NCBI GenBank assembly: GCA_005222975.1
Contig: NJBI01000053.1
Coordinates: forward strand, 1 to 21,208
Length of the DNA stretch: 21,208 nt
Reading direction: 5' to 3'
DNA from: Promethearchaeota archaeon Loki_b31
GTDB taxonomy: Archaea > Asgardarchaeota > Lokiarchaeia > Sigyniarchaeales > SOKP01
Shown here piece by piece: positions 1,323 to 20,356 of the stretch; the stretch's first letter is position 1; every line of letters begins with the position of its first letter. The position numbers were made by a program, and so were the translations under genes. Below the pieces are notes generated by a model, which saw only the letters and a program-made list of their open reading frames with translations, did no database searches and had not been told where the DNA came from.

Positions 1323-2630
1323 TTATAATTTTATAGAGAATGGAAAATCTTTTGTTTCTTCTATTTTGTTTTGATCAGAGTCCATAAATTTTATATTTAT
1401 TTTAATTATGTAGTCTCCTGCTTCAATGGGTTTTAGACTAATTTCCCATTTTAAATCTTCATTCGTCTTCAACGAAAAGATCTGTTTTTTCGTGGTACCC
1501 CTCATAACTTTCAAATCTTCAGGAAATTCGACATCAATTTTTATATCTAACGCTTCTCCTACGCCTTTATTCTCAACCACAATTTCTAAGGGAAATGTTT
1601 GACCAATAAGAGGAGGTCTTAAGTTCTTAATCGATGTGTTTAATGTGGTAGGAGGAGAAATTAGATGTGGTTTTATCGATTGAGTTTCATAAATAAATAT
1701 CAAATTATTATTTAACTCACACGTTAAAAACATAGGACCTATTCTTGGATTATCGACTTGAAAATGTGGTTTAAAGGTGAACTCTAAGTGCGATTGTTTT
1801 CCAACTTCAATTCGGAAGGGAGCTTTTGGTTTTTTACTAATAGACAAATTATCTGAGAGATTTATCAATATTTTTGTTATATTGAATTCTTCTAATTCAT
1901 AATATAAAAAAGAGTCTTTTAAAATTTGTAAGAGGTTTGAAGTATCAAAACCCAAATTCAAATTTATAATTTCTTTAGTCGTGTATGTTCCTTTATCTAA
2001 TTTAAATGTGGTGTTTATTAAAAGCTTAAATTTTGTTAATAGTAATACGTTCTTTAACAATTTTAATTCAGCATCTCTAAATTTATAACGCCCAACATTA
2101 TTTTTAATTTTATCGAGATATTTTGGATCGTCATCTCTTAGCGCTATTGTTAGTTCAGAAACGAGCTTTATTAGAGAATGTTCTTTAAAATATTCTTTAT
2201 CAACTCTTTTTTTAGTTCTTTTTATAAAATCTAAACCCTCATCAGGAGAACCTTTAACAAACGAGCATAAATTCGATAATACCGAAAATATTACGAAATT
2301 TGAATTCCTATCGCTTTTATTTTTCAATTTAGGAATATAGTTAATGACCTCTTTATAAATTTGGTTAGCTTCTACAAACTTACTATTATGTAGACAAGCC
2401 TCTCCAGATTGTCTTAATAACTCTATACTAGTGTTAAATTTCTCTAATATTATAAACGCTTTTGCACCATTAATGAAACAGACTTTTGCTTTTTCAAATT
2501 CATTTAACTTAAGATACGAATTTCCCGCTACATGGTACTTATTACCAGCTTTTTTAAATTGTCTAGCTTTAAACAGTTGCTCAGCTCTTAAAAATTGATT
2601 TTCGGCAACTAATCTTTGGTCCTTTCCCAT
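1323..2630 (-). CDS. Hypothetical protein: N-terminal TPR/alpha-SNAP-like helical repeats plus C-terminal Ig-like beta-sandwich domain(s)
   Basis: 435-aa ORF. The N-terminus has helical-repeat patterning (AEQLFKARQFKKAGNKYHVAGNSYLKLNEFEKAKVCF). The C-terminus has a CARDB/DUF11/BatD-like strand pattern (GQTFPLEIVVENKG...FPEDLKV...LKPIEAGDYII). Domain calls are by eye. Confidence 0.65.
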   Translation of the reverse strand: MGKDQRLVAENQFLRAEQLFKARQFKKAGNKYHVAGNSYLKLNEFEKAKVCFINGAKAFIILEKFNTSIELLRQSGEACLHNSKFVEANQIYKEVINYIPKLKNKSDRNSNFVIFSVLSNLCSFVKGSPDEGLDFIKRTKKRVDKEYFKEHSLIKLVSELTIALRDDDPKYLDKIKNNVGRYKFRDAELKLLKNVLLLTKFKLLINTTFKLDKGTYTTKEIINLNLGFDTSNLLQILKDSFLYYELEEFNITKILINLSDNLSISKKPKAPFRIEVGKQSHLEFTFKPHFQVDNPRIGPMFLTCELNNNLIFIYETQSIKPHLISPPTTLNTSIKNLRPPLIGQTFPLEIVVENKGVGEALDIKIDVEFPEDLKVMRGTTKKQIFSLKTNEDLKWEISLKPIEAGDYIIKINIKFMDSDQNKIEETKDFPFSIKL

Positions 2631-2769: not shown

Positions 2770-2921
2770 GATTTATAATTGTGGATTAAAAAGCCATTAG
2801 GATAAGGATAAAGGTCACCATAATAATTGTTCCGCTAACACCACCTGGTGTCACCCATGTAAATATTACAAATTATTTATTTGGAATAAATAATAAAAAA
2901 TTATTATAGGAATAATAATTT

Positions 2922-2987
2922 CCGAAACCATAGCTAATGGTTCGTCATCTTGCGACTAATATTTTCTCGCAAGAGTCATTCCTTCGG
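2922..2987 (-). promoter_or_regulatory. Eukaryote-like (Loki-type) SECIS element in the 3' UTR of hdrA-mvhD
   Basis: Minus-strand RNA reads CCGAA-GGA-AUGAC-UCUUGCGA-GAAAAUAUUAG-UCGCAAGA-UGAC-GA-ACCAU-UAGCU-AUGGU-UUCGG. It has an AUGA/GA tandem G.A core (2979-2976 and 2946-2945), a perfect 8-bp upper helix (2974-2967 with 2955-2948), an 11-nt apical loop containing AAAA, and a lower helix CCGAA/UUCGG. It lies directly after genes with four in-frame TGAs. Confidence 0.9.
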
Positions 2988-2988
2988 T

Positions 2989-3462
2989 TTAATTTTTCTT
3001 TTGTTTTTCTTTTGAATCTTTTTTGTTCTTTTCGGAACGCAGAGATTCTTTAATTGGATTGCTGCCTAAATTTTCGATTATTTCTGAGATTCTGGTGACT
3101 TCTTCTTGAAATTTTTGACCTTCAGCTGCGCTACAATGAAACATTTGGATTCTATCAGGGGAAACACCCGTAGTTTTTAAAATTTCTCTCGCATACTTCA
3201 CATTTTTTGCAGCTACTAAATTACCCGTTTCATAATCGCATTCTCCTTCGTATCATCCAGCAACAATTACTCCGTCGGCACCCTTCCCAATCGCGCGCAT
3301 CATAAGTGAAGGCGTTACGCGTCCAGTACAGTTGATTCTTATAGGTCTAATCGTAGAAGGGTATTGAGCGCGTATCGTACCAGCCATATCTCCAGCACCA
3401 TAACCTCATTTCCAGCACATAAATGCTAAAATCTTTATTTGGTCTTTATCGTTTGTCGCCAC
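2989..3462 (-). CDS. mvhD: Selenocysteine-containing hydrogenase iron-sulfur subunit D (MvhD/VhuD/FlpD family), 157 aa, Sec at residues 19 and 70
   Basis: Manual translation from GTG at 3462 gives MATNDKDQIKILAFMCWK*GYGAGDMAGTIRAQYPSTIRPIRINCTGRVTPSLMMRAIGKGADGVIVAG*YEGECDYETGN, in frame with the 2989..3201 ORF. TGA at 3408-3406 and 3255-3253 replace Cys in the MvhD motifs CxxC and GADGVxVxGC..G.C. SD GAGGTG is at 3474-3469. Confidence 0.95.
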
Positions 3463-3468
3463 TTCTTA

Positions 3469-3474
3469 CACCTC
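3469..3474 (-). promoter_or_regulatory. Shine-Dalgarno site (GAGGTG) for mvhD
   Basis: GAGGTG in the 13-nt gap between the hdrA TAG and the mvhD GTG, 6 nt upstream of the start. Confidence 0.75.
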
Positions 3475-3475
3475 T

Positions 3476-5449
3476 CTATATCTCTTCTAAAATAGCATCG
3501 ATTTGTTTTTCATATTGAGGTTCACGGTAGTATCTTAGCGTAATCGCCTCAGAAGGACAATTGGCTAAGCATGAACCGCATCCACGGCATAATATCTCGT
3601 TTACTTCTGCTCCGTCAGCTAAAGTCTTAATCGCATCGTAAGGACAATTTAATTCACACAGTCCACACTTCGCACATCTATCTTTGTCTACAGTAGCTCG
3701 AATTAATAAAATCCTATATTTATCCTTCCACATCAATCGTGCTAAAGAAGATGCTGCTGCTCTCCCTTGAGCTATTGATTCAGCTATAGATTTAGGGCTT
3801 TGAGAAGCTCCTGCAAGTACGATACCCGGAATTTTTGTGTCAATTGGATTTAATCGAGAGTGAAATTCCTTGAAGAATCCATCTTGGCTCGTTTCAAGCT
3901 TTAAGATTCTTCTAATTTTTTCTACTCCCTTTGCGGGCACCATAGCACACGATAGAACCACCATATCGTACTCAACTTCTTTTAATCTTGTGCTACTAAG
4001 TGTGTTTTGGATAATTATTTTAAGATTTTGAGTTTCTGGGTCTTCTTGAATTTTTGAGACATTAGTTCTAATGTATCTAATACCTTCTTTTCGTGATGCG
4101 GTGTAATACTCTTCATAATCTTTTCCAGAGGCTCGAATATCTATGTAGGCAACAGAGATTTCCATTTCAGGATAGTGTTGTTTTATAAGTTTAGTATTTT
4201 TAATTGAAATCATACAACATACTCCGGCACTGCAATAAGTATTCATGTTTAAATCTCTCGACCCGACACATTGAATAAATAGTACTTTTTCAGGTTTTTT
4301 TCCGTCAGAAGGGCGAACTAGATGTCCAACAGTTGGTCCGTTAGGTGCAAGCATCCTTTCTAACTTCATTTGGGTTATTACATTTGGATAAACATTGTAA
4401 CCTAAATAACCCGTTTCTGGTTCGTACTCGTCCCATCCTGTAGCTACTATTATTGAGCCAACTTCAACATCTACAATTTCATCTTCTTGATCAAAATCAA
4501 TTGCTTTAACTTCACAAACACCTTTGCACAATTCACATTTAATGCATCTCGTCATATCAATTTGGGCTATCGAGGGTACGGCTTGAGCAAAGGAAACGTA
4601 AATTGCTTTTCTCGGGTTCATTCCTTCGTTAAATTCGTCGTATCCGTAAGCGGGACACACATCAAAGCAAGCACCGCAGCCATTGCAGTCGTTATTAACA
4701 TACCTTGCCCTTTTACGGATTTTAACATTGAAGTTTCCAACAAATCCAGAAACATCTTCCACTTCACTATAAGTATATACATTTAACCCTGGAGTTCTTG
4801 CTGCTTCGAGCATAACAGGACCAAGGATTCATATACTGCAATCGTCAGTGGGAAATGTTCGGTCTAACATAGCCATTTTTCCTCCAGTTGTCGGATTTTT
4901 CTCAACCAAATGGACTTCAAAACCTTCTTCAGCCAAATCTATTCCTGCTGATAATCCTGCTACGCCACCACCAATAATTAAGGCTTTCTTAGTGATATCT
5001 ACCTCTTTGACTAATATTTTTTCTAAAACCCTAGCCCTAGCAACACCAGACCGAATAACATCCTCAGCGGTTCTTTGTGCCCCTGGTTTATCTTGTCTGT
5101 GGACAAAACTCGCGTGTTCTCGTATGTTAACGAATTCCAAGTAAGAAGGGTCCAAACCCATAGATTCTAGTACGCTTTTAAAAACAGGTTCGTGAGTTTT
5201 TGGGGTGCAAGATACCATAACTAACCTATTAGCGTTGCTCTCGATCATTTTTTCTTTAATGAATTCGGCTCCGGGTTGTGTGCACATTGCTAAGTAATCT
5301 AAAGCTTCAACTACATTTGGAAGCGTTTTTGAAAATTCTGATAGAGCTTTTGTATCGATTATTTCGGCAATATTAATACCTCATTGGCATACTGCCACGA
5401 AGATTCTTGGTTCATCATTTGTAATTTTAGTTTCTATAGTTTCTACCAT
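3476..5449 (-). CDS. hdrA: Selenocysteine-containing heterodisulfide reductase subunit A (FAD, Fe-S), 657 aa, Sec at residues 23 and 207
   Basis: ORF-track pieces 4829..5287 and 3476..4813 share one frame and join through TGA 4831-4829 (LDRTFPTDDCSI*ILGPVM). The frame extends upstream through TGA 5383-5381 (EPRIFVAVCQ*GINIA, compare HdrA CxCGxNI) to ATG 5449. It contains GGGVAG (FAD), ferredoxin-type CxxCxxC motifs, QCVGSRD and YCSxxCC. Confidence 0.96.
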
Positions 5450-5600: not shown

Positions 5601-6083
5601 TTGAATAAAAAAAGTTCGATTAAATCAAATTTAAATAGAACTTCTACGGTTATTGAGATAGAGATGTTATTAAATTTATTACAAATGGGAGGGTTTCTAG
5701 ATGAGGTGATTTTGCTTCTAAGCCTTATGGCTGCTTTTGCGGGTGGAGATATCTTGTTATTAAAGTTCGGGTTAGCAATAACTAAAGCTCGAGAAAGAAC
5801 AAGAATGAAATGGGTGGCGGTAAGTTTTCTAATTCAATTTGGAGTAATTTTTCTTATTAGTTCTCCCTTGTTTTTGTTAGGATTCTCAGGGGAGTTCGAT
5901 GGAGCCCCCGGAGTAATCATCCCAATAATAATACTTTGTACTTTTATTGACTTAAACGTAATTAATGTCATACATCAAGTTGGCCTTAAACGTTCGTTAG
6001 TCGTAGTATTGATAATAATCCTTCCAATCGTCTTTATTATGGTTAATATGGGATTCGTTCTCTCAATGTCCACAAGATTTTAA
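5601..6083 (+). CDS. Hypothetical integral membrane protein (about 4 TM helices); true start probably a downstream ATG
   Basis: 160-aa ORF with about four hydrophobic stretches, filling the gap between hdrA and pyrF. The first ~20 codons look like AT-rich upstream sequence. Confidence 0.7.
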   Translation: MNKKSSIKSNLNRTSTVIEIEMLLNLLQMGGFLDEVILLLSLMAAFAGGDILLLKFGLAITKARERTRMKWVAVSFLIQFGVIFLISSPLFLLGFSGEFDGAPGVIIPIIILCTFIDLNVINVIHQVGLKRSLVVVLIIILPIVFIMVNMGFVLSMSTRF

Positions 6084-6093
6084 TAATTTACTT

Positions 6094-7014
6094 TCACAAA
6101 TTAACTTCTTTGTTAATTTTTTTGTTCATGTCAATGATTTCGTCTCTCGCAGCTTCACCAAATCTGTCTGCGGGGTATTTTTCATTTTTAAAATAAGCAT
6201 ATGTTATTCCCCTTGACGAGTTAACTATCCCCCCTAACCCGTTTTCATTAAAGCCACTTTTTATATCTCTTGCTGCAGCACCTTGAGCTCCAAAACCAGG
6301 CATTAATATATAGGAATTTTTGACTATTTTCCTTATTGTTTTTAATTCTTGTGGGTAAGTTGCTCCTACTACTACTCCCAAATTATGAAAATTAGAAATT
6401 TGTTCAAGGTTTTGCCCCCACTTAGAAACTAGTTTTGCCATGTGGATATAATTTCTTTCCAGTGTTATATGATCTACGATAACTTCAACATCAGAGTCGG
6501 GAACATTAAGGATCCTAGCGCTAAAGATATCTTGAAAATCTTTACTACTAGGGTTTGAAGTTTTTACTAGGATAAATAGACCTTTCTCTTTATAACTTAA
6601 ATAAGGTTTAATCCCATCAAATCCAAGGTATGCGATTATTGTACAAGCGTCAGCATTATAAACTTTAAACGTGGAATACGCGTACGCTTCCGAAGTTGAA
6701 CCAATATCGTTACGCTTTGAATCTAAAATGACAAGTAAATCTTTTTTATGGGCGTATTTTATCGTTTCTTTCAACGCTGTTAACGCCTCATATTTCTCGT
6801 AAAATGCGATCTGCGGTTTTACAACGGGGATTAAATCAGATGTATGATCAATAAGATTTTTGTTAAATTCTAGAATTATTTTACTCGGATCTTTTAACTC
6901 ATCTATTAAATACTTAGGAATTTCGCCTTGCTTATCCATCCGGGGATCAAGTCCCATACAAACTACGCTTTTCTTATCCTTTATAGACTGAATTAATCGT
7001 TCAATAAAATGCAT
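6094..7014 (-). CDS. pyrF: Orotidine-5'-phosphate decarboxylase (long, subfamily-2 type)
   Basis: VCMGLDP, VKPQIAFYE, the catalytic DxKxxDIxxT (LDSKRNDIGST), VKTSNP, VVGATYP, LMPGFGAQG and VNSSRGI motifs. Confidence 0.96.
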   Translation of the reverse strand: MHFIERLIQSIKDKKSVVCMGLDPRMDKQGEIPKYLIDELKDPSKIILEFNKNLIDHTSDLIPVVKPQIAFYEKYEALTALKETIKYAHKKDLLVILDSKRNDIGSTSEAYAYSTFKVYNADACTIIAYLGFDGIKPYLSYKEKGLFILVKTSNPSSKDFQDIFSARILNVPDSDVEVIVDHITLERNYIHMAKLVSKWGQNLEQISNFHNLGVVVGATYPQELKTIRKIVKNSYILMPGFGAQGAAARDIKSGFNENGLGGIVNSSRGITYAYFKNEKYPADRFGEAARDEIIDMNKKINKEVNL

Positions 7015-7147: not shown

Positions 7148-10100
7148 TTATTTAATAAGATAAAACTTATTTTTAAGGGGATTATTAATTTCTAATTGCT
7201 TCCAAACATTAGATAATTCACTCCAACATTTTTCAGCTAAATTTTTATTCGCTTTATAAGCGGAATTGATTAAAATTTGCAATAGTTTTTCCCGTATTTT
7301 GTTATCGTATTTTTCATTCAATATAAACTGTGATAAAGTTGGTAAAGCCTGTCTATACATAAATGGTTTTATTAGATTTAAATCTTCATCTGACAGGATT
7401 TTTGGAAAAGAGTCTAAAAATCTTTTAAAGTCTATATTGACAAATGAAACATTCGCATGAGGACAGCTACTTATATTATAATTATCTCTTAATAAATTTT
7501 TTTCTACATAATCATAGATCTCTTTATGTGTATGATCTGGATTTTGAACAAGAACTAAATATTCTAAATTTTTTATAAGTAATTCAATTCTCTTATATTT
7601 CTTTTCTGACTTTCGACTTTTCCAGACTTCTAAAGTATTAAGCATTAAGGTACGAGACAATTCTGATTCAGTTTTGTAAAGTTTTCTTGCGAGAAAGACT
7701 ATTGTCCCATAATGGAGCTTTGGATTAGGATCAATTAATATTTCTTTTAAAGAAATTAAATCCTCGTTATTCAAATGAAAATGGTCAGATAGATTCCTTG
7801 CAGCAAATCTACGAGTATTTATAGGATCTTCATCTTCATTAGTTATTAATGAAATTAAATATTTTTTTGCTTTTTCATTAAGTGGACCACATAATGGTGC
7901 TATTTCATATTTAACTTCAGAAGGTATTTCATTATCCCTCAATAATTTCTCTATTAACGAAATTCTATTTTCTGTTTGAAGAAATCCCATACTTAAAGCA
8001 ATTCTCGATCTAATAAAATCAGGAATTTGAGAATCTTTTAAAATTTTAATAATTTTATCCAAAACCTTGTCTTGTCCAATCTCAATGAGTTTATTAGCAA
8101 TATATCTTAATCTATAGGTAGATTCTTTAAATTTTTTTAAAAAGGGCTCTTTTAAGGAGAGTTCGAGCAATTTCTCCAATATTGTTATAGCATCTTCAAT
8201 TTGTATATAATTTAATACATTTAGACTATATACATTAAAGTCTTTGTCATTTAGGTAATGGTTTTCAAGAATTACAATAGACTCTTTAACACTTATAATA
8301 TTAAAAATAAATTTAATAACATAAGAATCTAAATTTAATTTCTTATCCTTATACAATAATTCTGCTAAAGCATTTTTTGCGGAATCTAACTTTATTTTTG
8401 CTAAATAATTAATAGCCTTCTTCTTTAAATAATTATATGATGGTTCTTCTTTATTTGCTATAGTTTTTAATTTAGAAATTATCTTCTCTCTTAATCCAAG
8501 GTCTTTTATAAATTTCAAACCTCGAGAGATGCATTCTGCTATAATGAAAAGTTTATCATAAAGAATATTATCTTTTAATTCTAATATTTCCATTAATAAA
8601 TTAGTTGCATCTCCCAATTCTGCATAAAAATATAAGACTTGCCTCCAAAAAGGATTTTCAATGTGATTTATAATTTCTTCATAACCATTTTCTCGATCTC
8701 TTAATGCGCTTGCAACAAAAAACTCTTGAAACGATATATGAGGAAAAGCATAGTAATTCTCTAGTGTCCAAGAACATAATAATCCTGTTTGGATCCTTAT
8801 AAAATCAAATGTTGCTTTCGCTTTAACACTATTAATTCCAACAATAGGTAATTTTTTGGCAATATTTTTAATCAATCTATCTTGTTCAAAACAAGCAATA
8901 CCTTTTCGATGATATAATAGAGAGATTTCATTTAATATATCTTTAATTTTATCAGGTGTTAGGTTTTCTACTTCTGAATAGCGACTTATTCTTCTGGTAG
9001 CATCCCATTCCTCTAATAATATGTTTACAGCTCTTTTATATAATTCTGATATTTTTTGAGGTAAATTCATAGTACGATCAAAATTTATACATATAAGCGA
9101 TAGAAGCAATGGATTTTTCGAGAGATCCCTAAGATTTGATTCTCTTACTTGATTAATTAATTTATTTCCAACCTCAAATTCCTTGGAAAACCACTTCCGA
9201 ATGAAAGAGTTAATCATTCTTCCAGTTAAGGGCAAAATTTCATAATTCTTAAAAATTACAGTAATTTCTGTAAAAACTGAAATTAGAGATTCTCTTCGAA
9301 CACTACAAATAACTTTATTTTCAGGATTAAAACGAATAATTTCCTGTAATTCTGAATCAATTTGTTTTAATTTTTTCCTAGCCATCTCTGGATTTTCTAT
9401 ATCTAATTCATCTAATCCATCAACAAAAATAACTAATCTACCAGAATATAGAAAAAAATCAAAAATCAGATTGATTTTGCTTGAGTCTTCAATTACTTTT
9501 AGTTCTTGGTAAAGAAAATCTTTAATTTTAAGGTCTTGAGCAATTATTCTTCTAATTGGAATAAATATAGGTAAAAATAAATCCTCATTCTTACAAATAT
9601 CTAAACACAATCTTTTTAATTCTGTTGATTTTCCAGTTCCAGGATATCCTATTATAAGTATGTGATTCTCACTTTCAAATATTTCTTTTAATAGAAAAAG
9701 TATATCATATCTCTCATACTCTTCTGGATGTTTTTCAAGAGAAAAATCTTTTTCAATTTCACTTTCACTAATTTTCCTATATTCTTTAAGATATAGTTGA
9801 ACATAGAGATCGCTTATTTTTAGTTCTCTATTAAAGCTTAAGAGTGAAATTTTATTTAGAAAATCATAATATTTTCTTTTATATTCATTTAAATATTCTA
9901 AAATTGTAGCTTCGTTAAGACTAAACCTCTTTATTTCATTTTCCTCACAAAATTTCTTTATAGCCTCTAATGAAATAGTTGCGTTTAATTTATGTAACTC
10001 TCTAATTGAAAGATTTTTTAATGAATAACTACCAAGATGAGAGATTCCAGCAAAATTTCTTATTTGATATATTTTGAAATCATACTTTTCCCAGGTTATA

Positions 10101-10414
10101 TAAAATGGAACCCATAAATTAGTCGAATAGAATCTCGCTTGTTGTTCAACAAATTCATTATCTATTTTCTTAGTTTCTATGACAATTAAACTTGTTTTTT
10201 CACAATGATCTCTATCTCCAAAAAAAACAACATCCGCTTCAGGTTTTCTACCTCTTTTATGGGGAGAATAACCTTTTAATGGAAAACTTAATTCAAAATT
10301 ATCATCATTATATCCCAGAAGTTTAAAGAATGGAATCACTAATTTTACTCTAATATCATCCTCAGAACCTAAAGGAATTCTAATTAATTTATTAATTTTT
10401 TCTAATAAATTCAT
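7148..10414 (-). CDS. Nuclease-NACHT (STAND NTPase)-HEAT-like repeat protein; putative NLR-like defence protein
   Basis: N-terminal HsdR_N-like PD-(D/E)xK domain (SEDDIRVKLVIPFFKLLGY...ADVV...IETKK...QARFY). Walker A GYPGTGKST, Walker B LVIFVDGLDE, NPLLLSLIC and FPHISFQEFFVA are NACHT motifs. The C-terminus is long, Leu-rich and helical. Confidence 0.85.
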   Translation of the reverse strand: MNLLEKINKLIRIPLGSEDDIRVKLVIPFFKLLGYNDDNFELSFPLKGYSPHKRGRKPEADVVFFGDRDHCEKTSLIVIETKKIDNEFVEQQARFYSTNLWVPFYITWEKYDFKIYQIRNFAGISHLGSYSLKNLSIRELHKLNATISLEAIKKFCEENEIKRFSLNEATILEYLNEYKRKYYDFLNKISLLSFNRELKISDLYVQLYLKEYRKISESEIEKDFSLEKHPEEYERYDILFLLKEIFESENHILIIGYPGTGKSTELKRLCLDICKNEDLFLPIFIPIRRIIAQDLKIKDFLYQELKVIEDSSKINLIFDFFLYSGRLVIFVDGLDELDIENPEMARKKLKQIDSELQEIIRFNPENKVICSVRRESLISVFTEITVIFKNYEILPLTGRMINSFIRKWFSKEFEVGNKLINQVRESNLRDLSKNPLLLSLICINFDRTMNLPQKISELYKRAVNILLEEWDATRRISRYSEVENLTPDKIKDILNEISLLYHRKGIACFEQDRLIKNIAKKLPIVGINSVKAKATFDFIRIQTGLLCSWTLENYYAFPHISFQEFFVASALRDRENGYEEIINHIENPFWRQVLYFYAELGDATNLLMEILELKDNILYDKLFIIAECISRGLKFIKDLGLREKIISKLKTIANKEEPSYNYLKKKAINYLAKIKLDSAKNALAELLYKDKKLNLDSYVIKFIFNIISVKESIVILENHYLNDKDFNVYSLNVLNYIQIEDAITILEKLLELSLKEPFLKKFKESTYRLRYIANKLIEIGQDKVLDKIIKILKDSQIPDFIRSRIALSMGFLQTENRISLIEKLLRDNEIPSEVKYEIAPLCGPLNEKAKKYLISLITNEDEDPINTRRFAARNLSDHFHLNNEDLISLKEILIDPNPKLHYGTIVFLARKLYKTESELSRTLMLNTLEVWKSRKSEKKYKRIELLIKNLEYLVLVQNPDHTHKEIYDYVEKNLLRDNYNISSCPHANVSFVNIDFKRFLDSFPKILSDEDLNLIKPFMYRQALPTLSQFILNEKYDNKIREKLLQILINSAYKANKNLAEKCWSELSNVWKQLEINNPLKNKFYLIK

Positions 10415-12102: not shown

Positions 12103-12250
12103 TTAAATTAACGCTAGAGTTATTTAAAAAAACGATCATTTACAAATATTTTTTTCGATTTTATTCGACTAAAACAATCTATTTTTGATTTCTCTGATTA
12201 AGAGATTTTGAGAAGAAAATCTATTAAAATAATTGAGCTTAAAATTAATT

Positions 12251-12628
12251 ATGTCAAGTATTGAAATTATTAATCCTGGAACTCCCGTTGCGGGACCTTA
12301 TAGCCCGGGAATAAAAGCAGGTAATTTACTATTTGTTTCTGGTCAAGGATCGGCTCAGCCTGCAACTGATATTAAAGAACAGACTTTAGCTGTGTTAACC
12401 AATATAAAAAAAATCGTAGAAGCTACTGGAGGTAAAATTTCGAACATTGTCAATACAACCGTATTTTTAAAAAATATTAAAGAATTTAGCGAAATGAACA
12501 GCGTTTATAAAAAATTTTTTAATGACAACGGAGTTTCTGAATTTTATCCTGCGAGGGCAACAGTGGAAGTATCAAATTTACCTCTTGCTAGTATGTTAAT
12601 AGAAATAAGTGCGATAGTAGCACTGTGA
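12251..12628 (+). CDS. ridA: RidA/YjgF/UK114 family reactive imine deaminase
   Basis: GPYSPG, LLFVSGQ, FSEMNSVY, PARATVEV (catalytic Arg) and LIEISA motifs. Start placed at ATG 12251 rather than TTG 12233. Confidence 0.92.
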   Translation: MSSIEIINPGTPVAGPYSPGIKAGNLLFVSGQGSAQPATDIKEQTLAVLTNIKKIVEATGGKISNIVNTTVFLKNIKEFSEMNSVYKKFFNDNGVSEFYPARATVEVSNLPLASMLIEISAIVAL

Positions 12629-14001: not shown

Positions 14002-15837
14002 TTAAAATAAATCCTTAATGACAAAATCTAAATTGAGATCTGTTAATGTGTCTTTGAGAGGATAACCAGTTTCAGGATTCCAACCCATTTTTTCACAATA
14101 TCCTTTGTAATCCTCTAAATAATCTACAGTTACTGTTCTTTCAGGTAATTTATTCTTAATGATATCTATACCTTCTCGTAGTGTGAATGCTTGTCTCAAA
14201 GTTTGAATTCTTTGACCTGTTTTAATCGCTTCGGCGATGTCTAAGTCCCATCCAACAACTGCTTTAACTAATTCAAATAGAGGATATTTCTGAAAAACAT
14301 ATGCAAATTCACATAGTCCAAGACTATTAGTATATTGCATTATCGCAGTAAAAAGCTTTTCAGCTTCACTTCTATCATCGCCAGGACGCTTAAATTTTCT
14401 TGGTAATGTTAATCCTTCGAATAATCCATTTGGTTTAACTATCGGTCCCATTACAAAAAAATCCAAACTTGCTGTAGTATGTCTACCTGGCGTTGGATCG
14501 TAAGCGAAAGTAGTTCCCATGTTTTTATAATATTTTGGTGAATGCATACCTAATTCTTGGCCTAAGGAGTGCATAGCGTATTCCGATCCTCTCCCTAATT
14601 TTTCTGCTGCTATTTTAGAACCATCTGCCAGTAAATCCCCAATTCCTTCCCGATTTATCATTTTTTTTAGTAGCGTAATTATAGATTCTGAATTTCCCCA
14701 AGTCAATTCAAGTCCGTCAGTATCATCCTTAGAAATTAAATTATTTTCGTAACATTCGATTGCAAATGCAATAGTCGCCCCAGCAGAAATAGTATCTATT
14801 CCAGCTCGATTACATATGTCGTTAGCTTTAAAAATTGACATTAGATCGTCGTTAAGCAATAAGTGTCCAAAACTGGAACAAGTTTCATATTCAGGACGGT
14901 GAGTCTCTTCTAAACCCACTTCTGGAACTTTCATAATCGCACCACACCGCACTGGGCATGAGAAGCATCCGTAGGGTTTTTCTTTATATTTATCTATTTC
15001 ATTACCAGAAATTTTAGTCAATTTATCATCTGGAAAATCTTCTTTAGTACCCCCCCAATTTTTGCAAGGAGTATCTCCTATTTTAAATAAAATTTCATTT
15101 CCCATTGTAGTTCCTAACGTTTTATACCCTAAAATTCCAGCTGCAGTAGAAGTATTAATTCCATCATTATAATCTTTTGTATGTTGAATAAGAGCATCTT
15201 TATCGAAGACAGTAATTTTTTTTCCTCCCTTAAGAACAATTGCTTTAAGTTTTTTGGAACCCATAACAGCTCCAAATCCAGATCTCCCTGCAACCCTAGC
15301 TTTATCATTAACAATTCCAGATATTAAACTTAAATTTTCTCCTGCCTGACCAATACTAGCAATTTGAACGCTTCCATGCTTTTCTTTTAGTTTATCTTCT
15401 GTTTGCACAACATCTAAACCCCATAAATCTGAAGCATCTAAAATTTGCTTATCATCTTCCAAAATTGTTATGTATTTTGGACTGTTAGCCATGCCTTTAA
15501 TTAAAATTGCATCATACCCACATTTCTTAATTTCTGGACCAAAATAGCCTCCACAATTTGAGTCGCCCCAAGTTTTTGTTAGCGGTGATTTACCCGCAAC
15601 CATGAAACGTCCTGTTAAAGGCGCTACTGTTCCGGTTAATAGCCCAGGAAAAAATCCAAATACGGATTCTGGACTGAGAGCATCTGTTTTTAGAGGTACA
15701 TTTTCATAAATGAGTTTGATTGCTATACCATATCCTCCTATATATTGTCGATATAACTCTTCTGGTAAATCTTCTTCCTTAAAAGTCCCATCAGTAAGAT
15801 TTACCCATAATATTTTTCCCATATAACCATTTGGCAT
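14002..15837 (-). CDS. aor: Tungsten-dependent aldehyde:ferredoxin oxidoreductase family protein
   Basis: GYMGKILWVNLT, KSPLT, DSNCGG, AGRSGFGAVMGSKKLKAI, CFSCPVRC, PEYET and GIDTISAG motifs. Confidence 0.93.
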   Translation of the reverse strand: MPNGYMGKILWVNLTDGTFKEEDLPEELYRQYIGGYGIAIKLIYENVPLKTDALSPESVFGFFPGLLTGTVAPLTGRFMVAGKSPLTKTWGDSNCGGYFGPEIKKCGYDAILIKGMANSPKYITILEDDKQILDASDLWGLDVVQTEDKLKEKHGSVQIASIGQAGENLSLISGIVNDKARVAGRSGFGAVMGSKKLKAIVLKGGKKITVFDKDALIQHTKDYNDGINTSTAAGILGYKTLGTTMGNEILFKIGDTPCKNWGGTKEDFPDDKLTKISGNEIDKYKEKPYGCFSCPVRCGAIMKVPEVGLEETHRPEYETCSSFGHLLLNDDLMSIFKANDICNRAGIDTISAGATIAFAIECYENNLISKDDTDGLELTWGNSESIITLLKKMINREGIGDLLADGSKIAAEKLGRGSEYAMHSLGQELGMHSPKYYKNMGTTFAYDPTPGRHTTASLDFFVMGPIVKPNGLFEGLTLPRKFKRPGDDRSEAEKLFTAIMQYTNSLGLCEFAYVFQKYPLFELVKAVVGWDLDIAEAIKTGQRIQTLRQAFTLREGIDIIKNKLPERTVTVDYLEDYKGYCEKMGWNPETGYPLKDTLTDLNLDFVIKDLF

Positions 15838-17572: not shown

Positions 17573-18202
17573 TTGGTGATTTTGATAATAATAAATAAAT
17601 ATCTCTCAGAAAAAGAACTTTCACTAATTTTTAACTTGTTAAAACATCCATTGCGGAGAGGGATTCTTAAACAATTATCTAAAAGTCCACAAGCTTACTC
17701 ACAGATTTTGAAAAATCTTAATATTCCGGAAAGTAGTATTTTAAACTATCATTTAAGAGAAATGGACGATTTACTGATTAAAAAAGATGTTAATGGAAAA
17801 TATATATTAAATGAAATCGGTGAAATTTGTTTGCAACTTATACTTAGAGTCAAGGAAAAAGAGGATGTTCGTAGTTTCAATAAACTTCAGCTATTGATAG
17901 AAAATTTAAAATCAATAATATTTTTGTTTCAAATAATATTCTTGCCACTCGTAGTTTTTTTAGCATTAGAACTTTACTTGTTAAATATTATTAATTTTTC
18001 ATCTATTCTTGGAATGTTTGCTTCAGGTGCGACTTTTAGTATATTAATATCAACTGGTGTTTTAAATAAAAAAAAAGAATCTGAGAGCATATCGGTGGAT
18101 AAATTTGGAAAGAAAGAGAAATTTGGGATGTTTTCCGTGCTATTTACTATTTGGATACTTACTTCAATAATAGTTAGTTTATTATTTTATTATTTTAATT
18201 AG
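17573..18202 (+). CDS. Winged-helix (ArsR-like) DNA-binding protein with C-terminal transmembrane helices
   Basis: LKHPLRRGILKQL...YSQIL...SSILNYHLREM...GKYILNEIGE wHTH pattern, followed by about three hydrophobic segments. Start codon uncertain. Confidence 0.75.
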   Translation: MVILIIINKYLSEKELSLIFNLLKHPLRRGILKQLSKSPQAYSQILKNLNIPESSILNYHLREMDDLLIKKDVNGKYILNEIGEICLQLILRVKEKEDVRSFNKLQLLIENLKSIIFLFQIIFLPLVVFLALELYLLNIINFSSILGMFASGATFSILISTGVLNKKKESESISVDKFGKKEKFGMFSVLFTIWILTSIIVSLLFYYFN

Positions 18203-18317: not shown

Positions 18318-19622
18318 TTAAATGAATGGGTTCTTATCTCTGAATATTTTATCTTTATATTCTTTTAACGAAGGAGGACAAAGCTCTTTTTCAGTAGCTT
18401 CTTTTTTAAGTGTTTTCATGATTTCTGCTAAATCAACTCCCACAGGACACCAATTCGTACAATTTTCGCAACCTGTACATAAAAATAAACCATCTTTAAC
18501 AGCAGCTTCGATTCCATTATGAATATAATCTCGAACAATATTTATTGCTCCAATGCCGTATTTTGATGCATATATATTACCAAATGCTCGAGAAGCTGTG
18601 CATACATAATCACAACTTTTACATGCGATACATTTTAAAATATCTTTTAAAAAAAGATTTTCTTTTGCTGCTTTAATTCTCCAGTCATCTACAAATATTA
18701 TAACTACTTCTTTCGCACCATACATCCCAAATACGCGTTTTCCTTGAATATCAGAAGTATTTGATGCCGCGGATATAAAACTAATATAAGCTCCATCTAC
18801 ACTATTTATTCTCTCATGTATTTTAGCTACAATTAGAGCATCAAAAACATTTGGAACGATTTTTTGTATTCCTACTACAACGATGTGTTTCTCAGTCGCC
18901 CTAGTTAACAGACTAATATTTCCCTCGTTCTCAACTAAAATAATGGAACCATCGTTAGCAGCAATTGCATTTGCCGATGTAAGAGAAACTTTAACATCGT
19001 TAAGTAATTCGGGACGATAATTCTTCCGGTAATAAGCTACTATTGCTTCTGCTTTCGCGTCTACATCTATTCCATATTTTTCCTTCATTTTTGCGACGAT
19101 TTCTTTTTCAGTAAATTGAACTCCAGGAGCTAAGGTGAAACTTGGATGTTTATAATCAAATAGTTGACATAGAACGTCGCCTAAATCCGTTTCTTTAATT
19201 TCTATATTATTTTTCTTTAAAACATCAATTATTCCTATATCCTTTGCTTCCAAAGATTTTGATTTGTATAAAACTTTATTATCTCCTAACTCTTCCATAA
19301 AGATTTTTTGGGCTTCTTCGTTTGTTTTGGTGTAATAAACCTTAAATTTATTAGTCTTACGCATCACCTCTATGCATTTTTTTACATATTCCTCAATATT
19401 TTCAACGAAATCTTCGCGTATTTTGGTAAGATGTTCTTTGTGTTCTTCAACAAATTCTCTACTAGTATCTTCGTAAAAATATCGTAAATCGAAGGAACGA
19501 TACTTACCTAAGCTTGCTAACTTCCAAATATCTCTAAACTTGCTGTAAACTGAGTCTTTATCGTTTAATTGTTCTATTTTTTCTTTTACTTCTTCATATA
19601 GCTCATTTCCTTTCTTACTCAT
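18318..19622 (-). CDS. LUD-domain/4Fe-4S protein (LutB/LldF-like lactate-utilisation type)
   Basis: KSKS, ETDLGD, LVENEGNI, HIVVVGIQKIVP and YGAKEV motifs, with C-terminal CIACKSC...C and CTGCENCTNWCPVG. Confidence 0.88.
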   Translation of the reverse strand: MSKKGNELYEEVKEKIEQLNDKDSVYSKFRDIWKLASLGKYRSFDLRYFYEDTSREFVEEHKEHLTKIREDFVENIEEYVKKCIEVMRKTNKFKVYYTKTNEEAQKIFMEELGDNKVLYKSKSLEAKDIGIIDVLKKNNIEIKETDLGDVLCQLFDYKHPSFTLAPGVQFTEKEIVAKMKEKYGIDVDAKAEAIVAYYRKNYRPELLNDVKVSLTSANAIAANDGSIILVENEGNISLLTRATEKHIVVVGIQKIVPNVFDALIVAKIHERINSVDGAYISFISAASNTSDIQGKRVFGMYGAKEVVIIFVDDWRIKAAKENLFLKDILKCIACKSCDYVCTASRAFGNIYASKYGIGAINIVRDYIHNGIEAAVKDGLFLCTGCENCTNWCPVGVDLAEIMKTLKKEATEKELCPPSLKEYKDKIFRDKNPFI

Positions 19623-20356
19623 ATTAAGGGGTCCTCCTGGTTCATTACTTTGATTATAAAATCCTCAAATTTAATTACGGGTTTCCTAATATTATTTTCT
19701 TCTCGTATTCTATATAAAGCGGTATAACAGAATGGACAAGCTGTTAACAAAGCTTTTCCTTTCCTCATTTGATTGAAAATAGATTTAGCGTTGTAATCGC
19801 TATTTTCTTTAAAAATGGCATAGACACCTCCACCAGCCCCACAACAAATGCTATTAATTTTAGTATTTTCCATTTCAAATAATTCTATATTTTCAATTGA
19901 GTTGATGATTTCTCTTGGTTCTTCGATGACTGGTGGAATCGCGTTTCGTAGATGACAAGCATCGTGATAATTGACAGTTAATTTTTTTCCAGAATGCTTT
20001 AAATTCAACTTCTTTAAATTCTCAGGTATAGCCATAAATTGTAAAAGGTGTTTAACTTCGATGTTGAAATCAGAGCCTAAATATTGTTTATAATATCGAG
20101 TTAAGTAATTATAACAACCTGCGCAAATCGTAACAATTTTAGAAACATCATTTGATTTAAACCAATTATTCACAAATTCTACATGTTTCTTTAATTCTTC
20201 GTCGCTGGAAATGTGATAAGATAACGCGCCGCAACAAGGGACATCATCAAGGATTTCGTATTCATCGTCAAGGAATTTAATGATCTTTATTCCATTTTCG
20301 CAAGTTTCTTTATATTTTGAGCTTGATAAACACCCTAAATAAATTAACTTTCTCAT
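19619..20356 (-). CDS. CCG-domain Fe-S oxidoreductase (LutA/GlpC/HdrB-like)
   Basis: YLGC, CCGA, TICAGC, YHDACHL, CCGAGGG and TACPFC motifs. ATGA overlap with the downstream LUD gene. Confidence 0.9.
   Translation of the reverse strand: MRKLIYLGCLSSSKYKETCENGIKIIKFLDDEYEILDDVPCCGALSYHISSDEELKKHVEFVNNWFKSNDVSKIVTICAGCYNYLTRYYKQYLGSDFNIEVKHLLQFMAIPENLKKLNLKHSGKKLTVNYHDACHLRNAIPPVIEEPREIINSIENIELFEMENTKINSICCGAGGGVYAIFKENSDYNAKSIFNQMRKGKALLTACPFCYTALYRIREENNIRKPVIKFEDFIIKVMNQEDPLI

Follow-up and report, generated by a model that had tools for sequence, protein, structure and literature searches.

In Lokiarchaeota the genes for HdrA and VhuD occur as pairs, and Mariotti et al. (2016; PMC4989117) found that these pairs have a single selenocysteine insertion sequence (SECIS) element, the lokiSECIS, which lies downstream of VhuD only. 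In their proposal this element serves as many as six UGA codons across some 2 kb of a polycistronic mRNA; they further noted that UGA is never the stop of HdrA in Lokiarchaeota and reported that existing SECIS models miss the lokiSECIS. The same arrangement was described by Huang et al. (2024; PMC11227280) across Asgard genomes, 227 of them using selenocysteine (Sec), and bin41, one of the relatives included here, holds the largest archaeal selenoproteome of that survey according to a 2026 review. Here we analyzed such a pair, hdrA and mvhD (vhuD), in a 21,208-nt stretch of DNA (hereafter the window) from a metagenome-assembled genome (MAG; 92% complete, 6% contamination) of the Promethearchaeota/Lokiarchaeia archaeon Loki_b31. 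The two genes contain four in-frame TGA codons and are followed by a lokiSECIS. Most probably they constitute a two-gene selenoprotein unit, in which the four UGAs of one mRNA are recoded by means of the sole lokiSECIS in its 3' untranslated region (UTR).

The Loki_b31 locus shares with the published Lokiarchaeota HdrA-VhuD pairs (PMC4989117, PMC11227280) the gene order, the strand and a very short spacer, an HdrA with several Sec, the canonical site always among them, a VhuD with two Sec, a single AUGA/9-bp/11-nt/GA element near the VhuD stop with none near hdrA, and an hdrA stop that is never UGA. A tRNA-Sec with a 31-nt T-loop intron beside the Sec machinery genes is also common to them. 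The locus differs in nothing essential, Loki_b31 being a further genome of the same kind. The selenoprotein pair with its shared-looking SECIS is real and conserved, was correctly read in the initial annotation of this DNA and is already known as a kind. What does not stand is the novelty that the annotation implied for a hybrid between a prokaryotic operon and a eukaryotic SECIS, since this was already the conclusion of Mariotti et al. (2016) and was repeated by Huang et al. (2024). As the arrangement was recognized in 2016, the window adds an instance and not a discovery. Our additions are a quantitative support for one SECIS per pair, solitary Sec-containing hdrA genes that serve as natural controls, and a more complete structural model of the element. 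In no other known case is a single SECIS thought to recode the UGAs of two cistrons over more than 2 kb, and the locus exemplifies this case cleanly and with strong conservation. Its host belongs to the archaeal lineage closest to eukaryotes, and its biology bears on the origin of the eukaryotic SECIS system.

Two other systems show partial likeness. The vhuD and hdrA genes of Methanococcales and Methanopyrus encode selenoproteins orthologous to those of Loki_b31, whose Sec positions agree (9sfi_K carries Sec at both VhuD sites), in the same synteny and with a 3'-UTR SECIS. However, their SECIS is the canonical archaeal one with a GAA_A internal loop, and their hdrA has its own SECIS, proposed to have degenerated in Lokiarchaeota (Mariotti et al., PMC4989117). 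The eukaryotic type I SECIS (SECIS_1), including that of multi-UGA mRNAs such as SelP, resembles the Loki element in the non-Watson-Crick AUGA...GA core, the unpaired loop A's, the lower helix, the 3'-UTR location and the long-range action on several UGAs (proposed for the Loki element), whereas the Loki element shows a shorter upper stem and an extra 3' hairpin in the internal loop, and would lie on a bicistronic mRNA.

Both genes become full-length, with 657 and 157 amino acids, only if TGA is read as Sec (U). The initial annotation had claimed this, and the coordinates it gave for the TGAs of hdrA and mvhD were every one correct (Table 1). It had also stated that standard annotation fragments the genes; indeed, translation table 11 divides the stretch into open reading frames (ORFs) of 152, 445 and 70 amino acids. 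Standard gene callers split both hdrA and mvhD, and the value of the locus is partly for annotation. In the intercistronic spacer, an AGAGGTG-type motif is kept in the 15 orthologous hdrA-mvhD junctions compared. HdrA is a flavoprotein of the heterodisulfide-reductase subunit A type, with Pfam matches to Fer4 families (4Fe-4S ferredoxin) and to Pyr_redox_2/FAD/NAD folds. It aligned end to end with PDB chain 5odc_A (residues 12-654 to 2-650, E 1.5e-202), and this alignment together with Pfam revealed the full architecture of N-terminal domain, FAD fold, and inserted and C-terminal ferredoxin domains. HdrA2 (771.9 bits) and HdrA (593.8 bits) were its top NCBIfam families, both under their curated cut-offs. 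MvhD is an iron-sulfur subunit of the FlpD family (PF02662, 145.1 bits) that matched the VhuD chain 9sfi_K of the PDB (E 1e-35) and had VhuD as top NCBIfam family (152.5 bits, under the cut-off of 215). When compared with the Methanosarcina-type fused HdrA2 (NF040770), HdrA corresponded to profile positions 1-643 and MvhD to positions 641-774 of 777, with scores below the family cut-off of 1100 bits; the fused protein joins HdrA and MvhD in one polypeptide, whereas Loki_b31 has two cistrons, both with Sec. By homology, the pair is predicted to encode the flavoprotein HdrA together with its electron-input subunit, MvhD; some methanogens have the two fused as HdrA2.

Table 1. Features of the hdrA-mvhD locus of Loki_b31 (window coordinates) and SECIS elements of solitary Sec-hdrA genes in related genomes (coordinates of the loci named)
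Feature	Position	Strand	Remarks
hdrA	3476..5449	-	ATG 5449 to TAG 3478-3476; 657 codons plus stop, TGA read as U
hdrA UGA codon 23 (U23)	5381..5383	-	motif C-Q-U-G-I-N; opposite Cys13 of 5odc_A
hdrA UGA codon 207 (U207)	4829..4831	-	motif D-D-C-S-I-U-I-L-G, canonical HdrA Sec site (about residue 200); opposite Cys197 of 5odc_A
intercistronic spacer, 13 nt	3463..3475	-	contains Shine-Dalgarno-like GAGGTG
mvhD/vhuD	2989..3462	-	GTG 3462 to TAA 2991-2989; 157 codons plus stop, TGA read as U
mvhD UGA codon 19 (U19)	3406..3408	-	motif C-W-K-U-G-Y-G; faces X (Sec) in 9sfi_K, Cys in 9sw2_D
mvhD UGA codon 70 (U70)	3253..3255	-	motif V-A-G-U-Y-E-G-E-C; faces X (Sec) in 9sfi_K, Cys in 9sw2_D
whole SECIS junction	2993..2916	-	
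lower helix 5' strand CCGAA	2983..2987	-	pairs with 2926-2922; RNAalifold consensus of 16 orthologues
lokiSECIS core	2945..2979	-	AUGA 2979-2976, 9-position upper stem, 11-nt loop, GA 2946-2945
3' side hairpin ACCAU-UAGCU-AUGGU	2927..2941	-	between core GA and lower-helix 3' strand; minimum-free-energy fold and RNAalifold
lower helix 3' strand UUCGG	2922..2926	-	RNAalifold consensus of 16 orthologues
first T6 run past the operon	2895..2900	-	candidate archaeal oligo-T terminator
SECIS of solitary Sec-hdrA, L160 (G026, contig C108)	7551-7591 and 16586-16627	- (both)	
SECIS of solitary Sec-hdrA, L163 (G013, contig C71)	2142-2182		

The AUGA of the lokiSECIS begins 9 nt past the TAA of mvhD. Its upper stem (2975-2967 with 2955-2947) is formed by eight Watson-Crick pairs plus a C.U beside the core, and its A-rich apical loop (2966-2956, 11 nt) reads GAAAAUAUUAG. 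The element shows all the parts by which Mariotti et al. (2016) defined the lokiSECIS, namely AUGA, a 9-bp stem, an 11-nt loop with an A-rich start (first five nucleotides) and a terminal G, which usually follows an A, and GA directly past the stem. We aligned the cores of 32 elements: 20 orthologues, four located after other mvhD copies in related genomes and eight others of this genome. AUGA and the terminal loop G were invariant in all of them. Compensatory changes were observed at 9/9 stem pairs, and 93% of cells were paired in the 31 distinct elements, a percentage that is partly by construction because the elements were picked with a pattern demanding 7-8 stem pairs; this choice affects neither the compensatory changes nor the orthologues' positional homology. 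Covariation in the stem reached 0.883, versus 0.237 in shuffled alignments and at most 0.205 for slid partners. An Rfam scan of the whole window at E values up to 10 gave three weak unrelated matches and no SECIS family, SECIS_1 included. This was expected because existing SECIS models also missed the lokiSECIS in the work of Mariotti et al. (2016). The element resembles the eukaryotic SECIS, yet by the Rfam model it is not a member of SECIS_1.

To the initial annotation the element after mvhD was the only convincing SECIS, and the 13-nt gap left no room for an hdrA-specific 3' SECIS; the gap is of that size, and scans of the operon and its upstream region with a covariance model, RNAalifold and synonymous sites yielded no second element. 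The covariance model of the SECIS core (R1), run without filters on both strands of the window, found the lokiSECIS after mvhD as the sole significant match (58 bits, E 3.9e-12). Its second-best match, at 5009-5023 in hdrA (12.5 bits), was discarded as a chance resemblance to the A/U-rich loop, with neither stem nor AUGA and with a fold z of -0.14. We then searched 80 related loci of about 5 kb, from species-level relatives among public Promethearchaeota/Promethearchaeia MAGs. One R1 match was present in each of the 74 loci that reach beyond mvhD, always right after this gene, and nothing was matched in hdrA or in the 1.5 kb upstream across these 74; the remaining six loci, with no match, stop short of the SECIS position. 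Outside the genus, R1 detected no element after mvhD in locus L075 at E up to 0.1, although a lokiSECIS-like three-way junction can be seen there by eye, and R1 is therefore tuned to this genus.

Within the Loki_b31 genome, the four Sec-containing hdrA-mvhD pairs (contigs C17, C23, C61 and C90) all have one lokiSECIS after mvhD, and none of the three full-length, Cys-only hdrA homologues has one. In related genomes three Sec-hdrA genes proved to be solitary, lacking an mvhD downstream: two belong to G026 and one to G013, a member of the same genus. In these the lokiSECIS overlaps the hdrA stop or starts 7 to 13 nt past it (Table 1). Loci L161 and L162 were left out of this reading since their stop-to-stop ORFs ran through probable UGA stops. 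Since solitary Sec-hdrA genes own a SECIS, a Sec-hdrA apparently needs such an element in cis, and in the pair the sole one available is that following mvhD. The sharing of one SECIS by both cistrons, as claimed initially, is strengthened by the 74/74 loci with one element per pair and by the solitary genes with their own; it is supported, and we infer it from these comparisons. The solitary genes also depart from the published rule that hdrA always adjoins frhD/vhuD in Asgard genomes, and in the main texts of PMC4989117 and PMC11227280 (figures and supplements aside) we found no mention of a solitary Sec-hdrA with its own SECIS.

The sharing would be unnecessary if hdrA had a signal of its own other than a lokiSECIS, such as a structure in the coding region, a 5'-UTR element or a sequence context, and the 3' SECIS served mvhD only. 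This we judge improbable. There are precedents outside the lineage, as bacterial SECIS elements sit in the coding sequence and the fdhA gene of Methanocaldococcus has a SECIS in its 5' UTR. Moreover, hdrA contains a weak conserved helix at 4228-4139 (RNAalifold z -5.8), near a mild dip in synonymous-site variation at 4204-4160 (z -2.06). However, we rejected this helix as a SECIS: its UGUUGU/ACAACA strands result from the conservation of Cys-Cys-Met and Lys-Gln-His codons, covariation is absent, its loop is 32 nt long and it has no AUGA/GA core. The synonymous-site scan of hdrA gave no significant 15-codon window (lowest z -2.74 among about 650 windows). An RNAalifold scan of the 16-species operon alignment found strong structure only at 3001-2917 (E -15.6 versus -0.7 when shuffled), RNAz found no other structure either in the work of Mariotti et al. 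(2016; PMC4989117), and R1 was silent over hdrA and its upstream region, as described above. The solitary genes bear a standard lokiSECIS after their stop, so the hdrA UGAs evidently depend on an element of this kind.

All four TGAs align to Cys or Sec in solved structures of HdrA and MvhD/VhuD, which bears out the claim that they occupy conserved Cys positions; the alignments of the read-through translations with these families, suggested as a check, are those with 5odc_A and 9sfi_K given above. Cys197 of HdrA (5odc numbering) is described as ligating the FeS cluster that lies N-terminally in the partner protomer (PMC9012536), and U207 would stand in for this Cys. In MvhD the two Sec lie about 50 codons apart in the FlpD domain, which is the mark of a VhuD selenoprotein. 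Among the relatives, the codon for hdrA residue 207 is TGA in 80/80 and that for residue 23 in 75/77, the other two having Cys. At residue 56, 31 of 77 have TGA and 46 have Cys, a direct Cys/Sec exchange. The hdrA stop is TAA or TAG in 78/78 and never TGA. Both hdrA TGAs are kept in 16/16 orthologues of the same genus, where synonymous sites differ in 48% of the pairwise codon comparisons, and the two TGAs of mvhD are retained by all of about 20 same-genus orthologues (78-95% identical). The conservation of TGA in hdrA exceeds chance. In Loki_b31 itself codon 56 (5284-5282) is TGT, encoding Cys, and orthologous HdrA proteins vary between two and three Sec within the genus.

These data also bear on the idea that the UGAs of hdrA terminate translation, or are read through as near-cognate Cys or Trp codons with no SECIS involved, in which case the main product would be something other than full-length Sec-HdrA. 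The inactivity of a Loki SECIS in Methanococcus maripaludis (PMC11881835) would agree with it. Nevertheless, TGA is kept at exactly two Cys positions in 75-80 species, against the 48% synonymous difference in the flanking codons, and genuine Sec sites typically show the kind of Cys/Sec alternation seen at residue 56. If any UGA within the SECIS range is recoded, hdrA is expected to avoid TGA as its stop, as it does. Termination at codon 23 would produce a peptide of 22 residues, and the other 634 codons, with their conservation at 77-98% identity, would serve no purpose. We regard this explanation as very improbable. That the TGAs are assembly or sequencing errors or mark a pseudogene, as might be suspected in a MAG of the quality given above, or that TGA is a sense codon throughout the organism, is already refuted, since the same TGAs are present in independent assemblies of 75-80 species, the MvhD positions match Sec in the solved VhuD structure, and, as had been noted against a genome-wide code change, TGA terminates pyrF (6094..7014), ridA (12233..12628) and the CCG-domain gene (19619..20356) in the window and 145 of the 1307 ORFs of at least 300 codons (11%) in the genome.

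A genome search for the Sec machinery, also suggested in the initial annotation, was successful for tRNA-Sec, SepSecS and SelD, whereas the SelB/EFSec-like and PSTK-like genes were top-ranked for their families yet remained under the cut-offs. SepSecS scored 475 bits with TIGR03531 (cut-off 225), and two tandem selD genes, each with one in-frame TGA, were over the cut-off. The tRNA-Sec gene (contig C59:31980-32135, + strand) lies 33 nt upstream of the SepSecS ATG and spans 156 nt, versus about 90 nt for the mature RNA. By eye it shows an acceptor stem of 9 bp (GGCCCCCGG pairing with CUGGGGGCC), a T stem of 4 bp, a UCA anticodon in the loop CUUCAAA, G73, CCA and a 31-nt insert in the T loop like that reported for Lokiarchaeum. 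Because of this insert, the Rfam tRNA-Sec match (C59:32015-32131) had only 28 bits against a cut-off of 47. A second insert, some 30 nt long, appears to be present in the D-arm region (GUCGGA ... UCUGAC); with two inserts this would appear to be a two-intron gene, explaining the low Rfam score. ARAGORN without introns reported nothing at C59:31980-32135. In intron mode it called a tRNA-SeC at C59:34501-34681 (90-nt intron), which is probably false and was rejected, because its anticodon stem is poor and the candidate at C59:31980-32135 is far better.

In the mechanism that we favor, hdrA and mvhD would be transcribed as one mRNA ending at the oligo-T run just past the SECIS. Its four UGAs would be decoded as Sec by Sec-tRNASec, brought by an elongation factor EFSec of the archaeal/eukaryotic type. 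The sole recoding signal would be the kink-turn-type lokiSECIS in the 3' UTR, acting at 0.27 and 0.43 kb on mvhD and, across the hdrA stop, at 1.85 and 2.4 kb on hdrA, and some protein would link the SECIS to EFSec, SBP2 not being known from archaea. The scheme goes beyond the observed gene identities, Sec positions and their conservation, SECIS covariation, uniqueness of the SECIS in the locus and Sec machinery genes in four respects, which we infer: co-transcription, Sec insertion, the action of the SECIS on hdrA and the bridging protein. Concerning transcription, sense-strand T runs of at least five occur at 5184-5180 inside hdrA, then nowhere from 5179 to 2901, then at 2900-2895, with four more by 2745. 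This pattern would fit a single transcription unit ending just past the SECIS, and is only suggestive. A sigma-70 promoter scan, which does not apply to archaea, stayed at shuffle level (11 promoter-like sites versus 10.7 expected).

Several points weigh against the sharing of one SECIS by hdrA and mvhD in this way. The negative assay in M. maripaludis (PMC11881835) is the sole one published so far for the function of a lokiarchaeal SECIS, so that the activity of Asgard SECIS elements is still a prediction. The EFSec/SelB-like gene (top family selB, 227.6 bits versus a cut-off of 242) and the PSTK-like gene (top family selen_PSTK, 140.6 versus 290.5 bits) score below cut-offs that are curated and were not trained on Asgard sequences. 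Our searches detect elements that are lokiSECIS-like or conserved in structure or sequence, so that a short or protein-mediated signal in hdrA would escape them. Co-transcription, the 3' end and Sec insertion at this locus are predictions from the DNA. Finally, 69 nt separate the first UGA from the start codon and 2.4 kb separate it from the downstream SECIS, and with coupled transcription and translation this requires either that the ribosome waits or that the two processes are uncoupled.

Around the core, the element folds into a three-way junction closed by a lower helix and carrying a 3' side hairpin (Table 1). In an alignment of 73 distinct orthologues, fitted to the model structure, the lower helix was 95.9% paired and the side hairpin 95.4%, with AU/UA/CG exchange at one pair of the hairpin. 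Across gene families, in an alignment likewise fitted to the model, 5/5 pairs of the lower helix and 5/5 of the side hairpin change on both sides. With the upper stem fixed, 14 of 16 elements from different genes and genomes folded as a three-way junction, and the flank-shuffle z-scores of the 16 ranged from -1.1 to -4.4. The same layout recurs in further families of the order, among them that of the complete single-contig genome G032, in which hdrA, mvhD and the SECIS are likewise arranged, and on each selenoprotein mRNA type examined beyond hdrA-mvhD. Published models comprise the core, the upper stem and the apical loop, and in the literature texts searched (figures and supplements aside) we found no mention of the side hairpin or of a three-way junction; the junction with its 3' side hairpin may thus be new. 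We tentatively suggest, with somewhat less than even confidence, that the lower helix and the side hairpin, which often has a GCAA-type loop, are required parts of the signal, possibly through a tertiary contact or a SECIS-binding factor, for which L7Ae-family K-turn binders and the C-terminal domain of EFSec are candidates. If so, the published pattern models would miss half of the element, and heterologous tests with the minimal hairpin could be expected to fail.

As to the surroundings of the operon, no hdrB, hdrC, mvhA or mvhG was found within the window. The flanking ORFs, at 1323-2630 (- strand, 435 amino acids) and 5601-6083 (+ strand, 160 amino acids), have no significant Pfam family. 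Between pyrF and hisS, at 7148-10414 (- strand), lies a gene for a 1088-residue NACHT/STAND NTPase with HEAT repeats. A weak match of the C/D-box snoRNA type at 14662-14734 (- strand; Rfam snoR25, 31 bits, E 0.21), inside an aldehyde:ferredoxin oxidoreductase gene, is probably due to chance.

Elsewhere in the genome, lokiSECIS elements accompany several small ORFs. On contig C34, a 63-codon ORF (17931-18122, - strand) with an N-terminal hydrophobic helix, the motif G-G-I-U-P-C and no Pfam match is followed 9 nt downstream by a lokiSECIS (17887-17921) closely like that of the window; this is a candidate for a small selenoprotein of the membrane that belongs to none of the families listed for Asgard archaea. 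A 120-codon ORF on contig C46 (32017-32379, + strand), also with no Pfam match, has two adjacent in-frame TGAs (G-C-U-U-E) and a lokiSECIS at 32388-32422, 8 nt past its stop. On contig C28, a zinc-ribbon-like ORF of 69 codons (15537-15746, + strand; CPFC...CQNC) has four in-frame TGAs, only weak Zn-ribbon matches in Pfam (E about 0.005) and a lokiSECIS at 15767-15801, 20 nt downstream. Lastly, contig C87 contains a small VhuU-like ORF (124782-124934, + strand) with the motif D-C-U-L-S-C-A-A-H and a SECIS at 124931-124965; its UGA stop is the UGA of the SECIS AUGA, and AA replaces GA after the stem. The same overlap and the same AA were described for VhuU.1 by Mariotti et al. (2016; PMC4989117).

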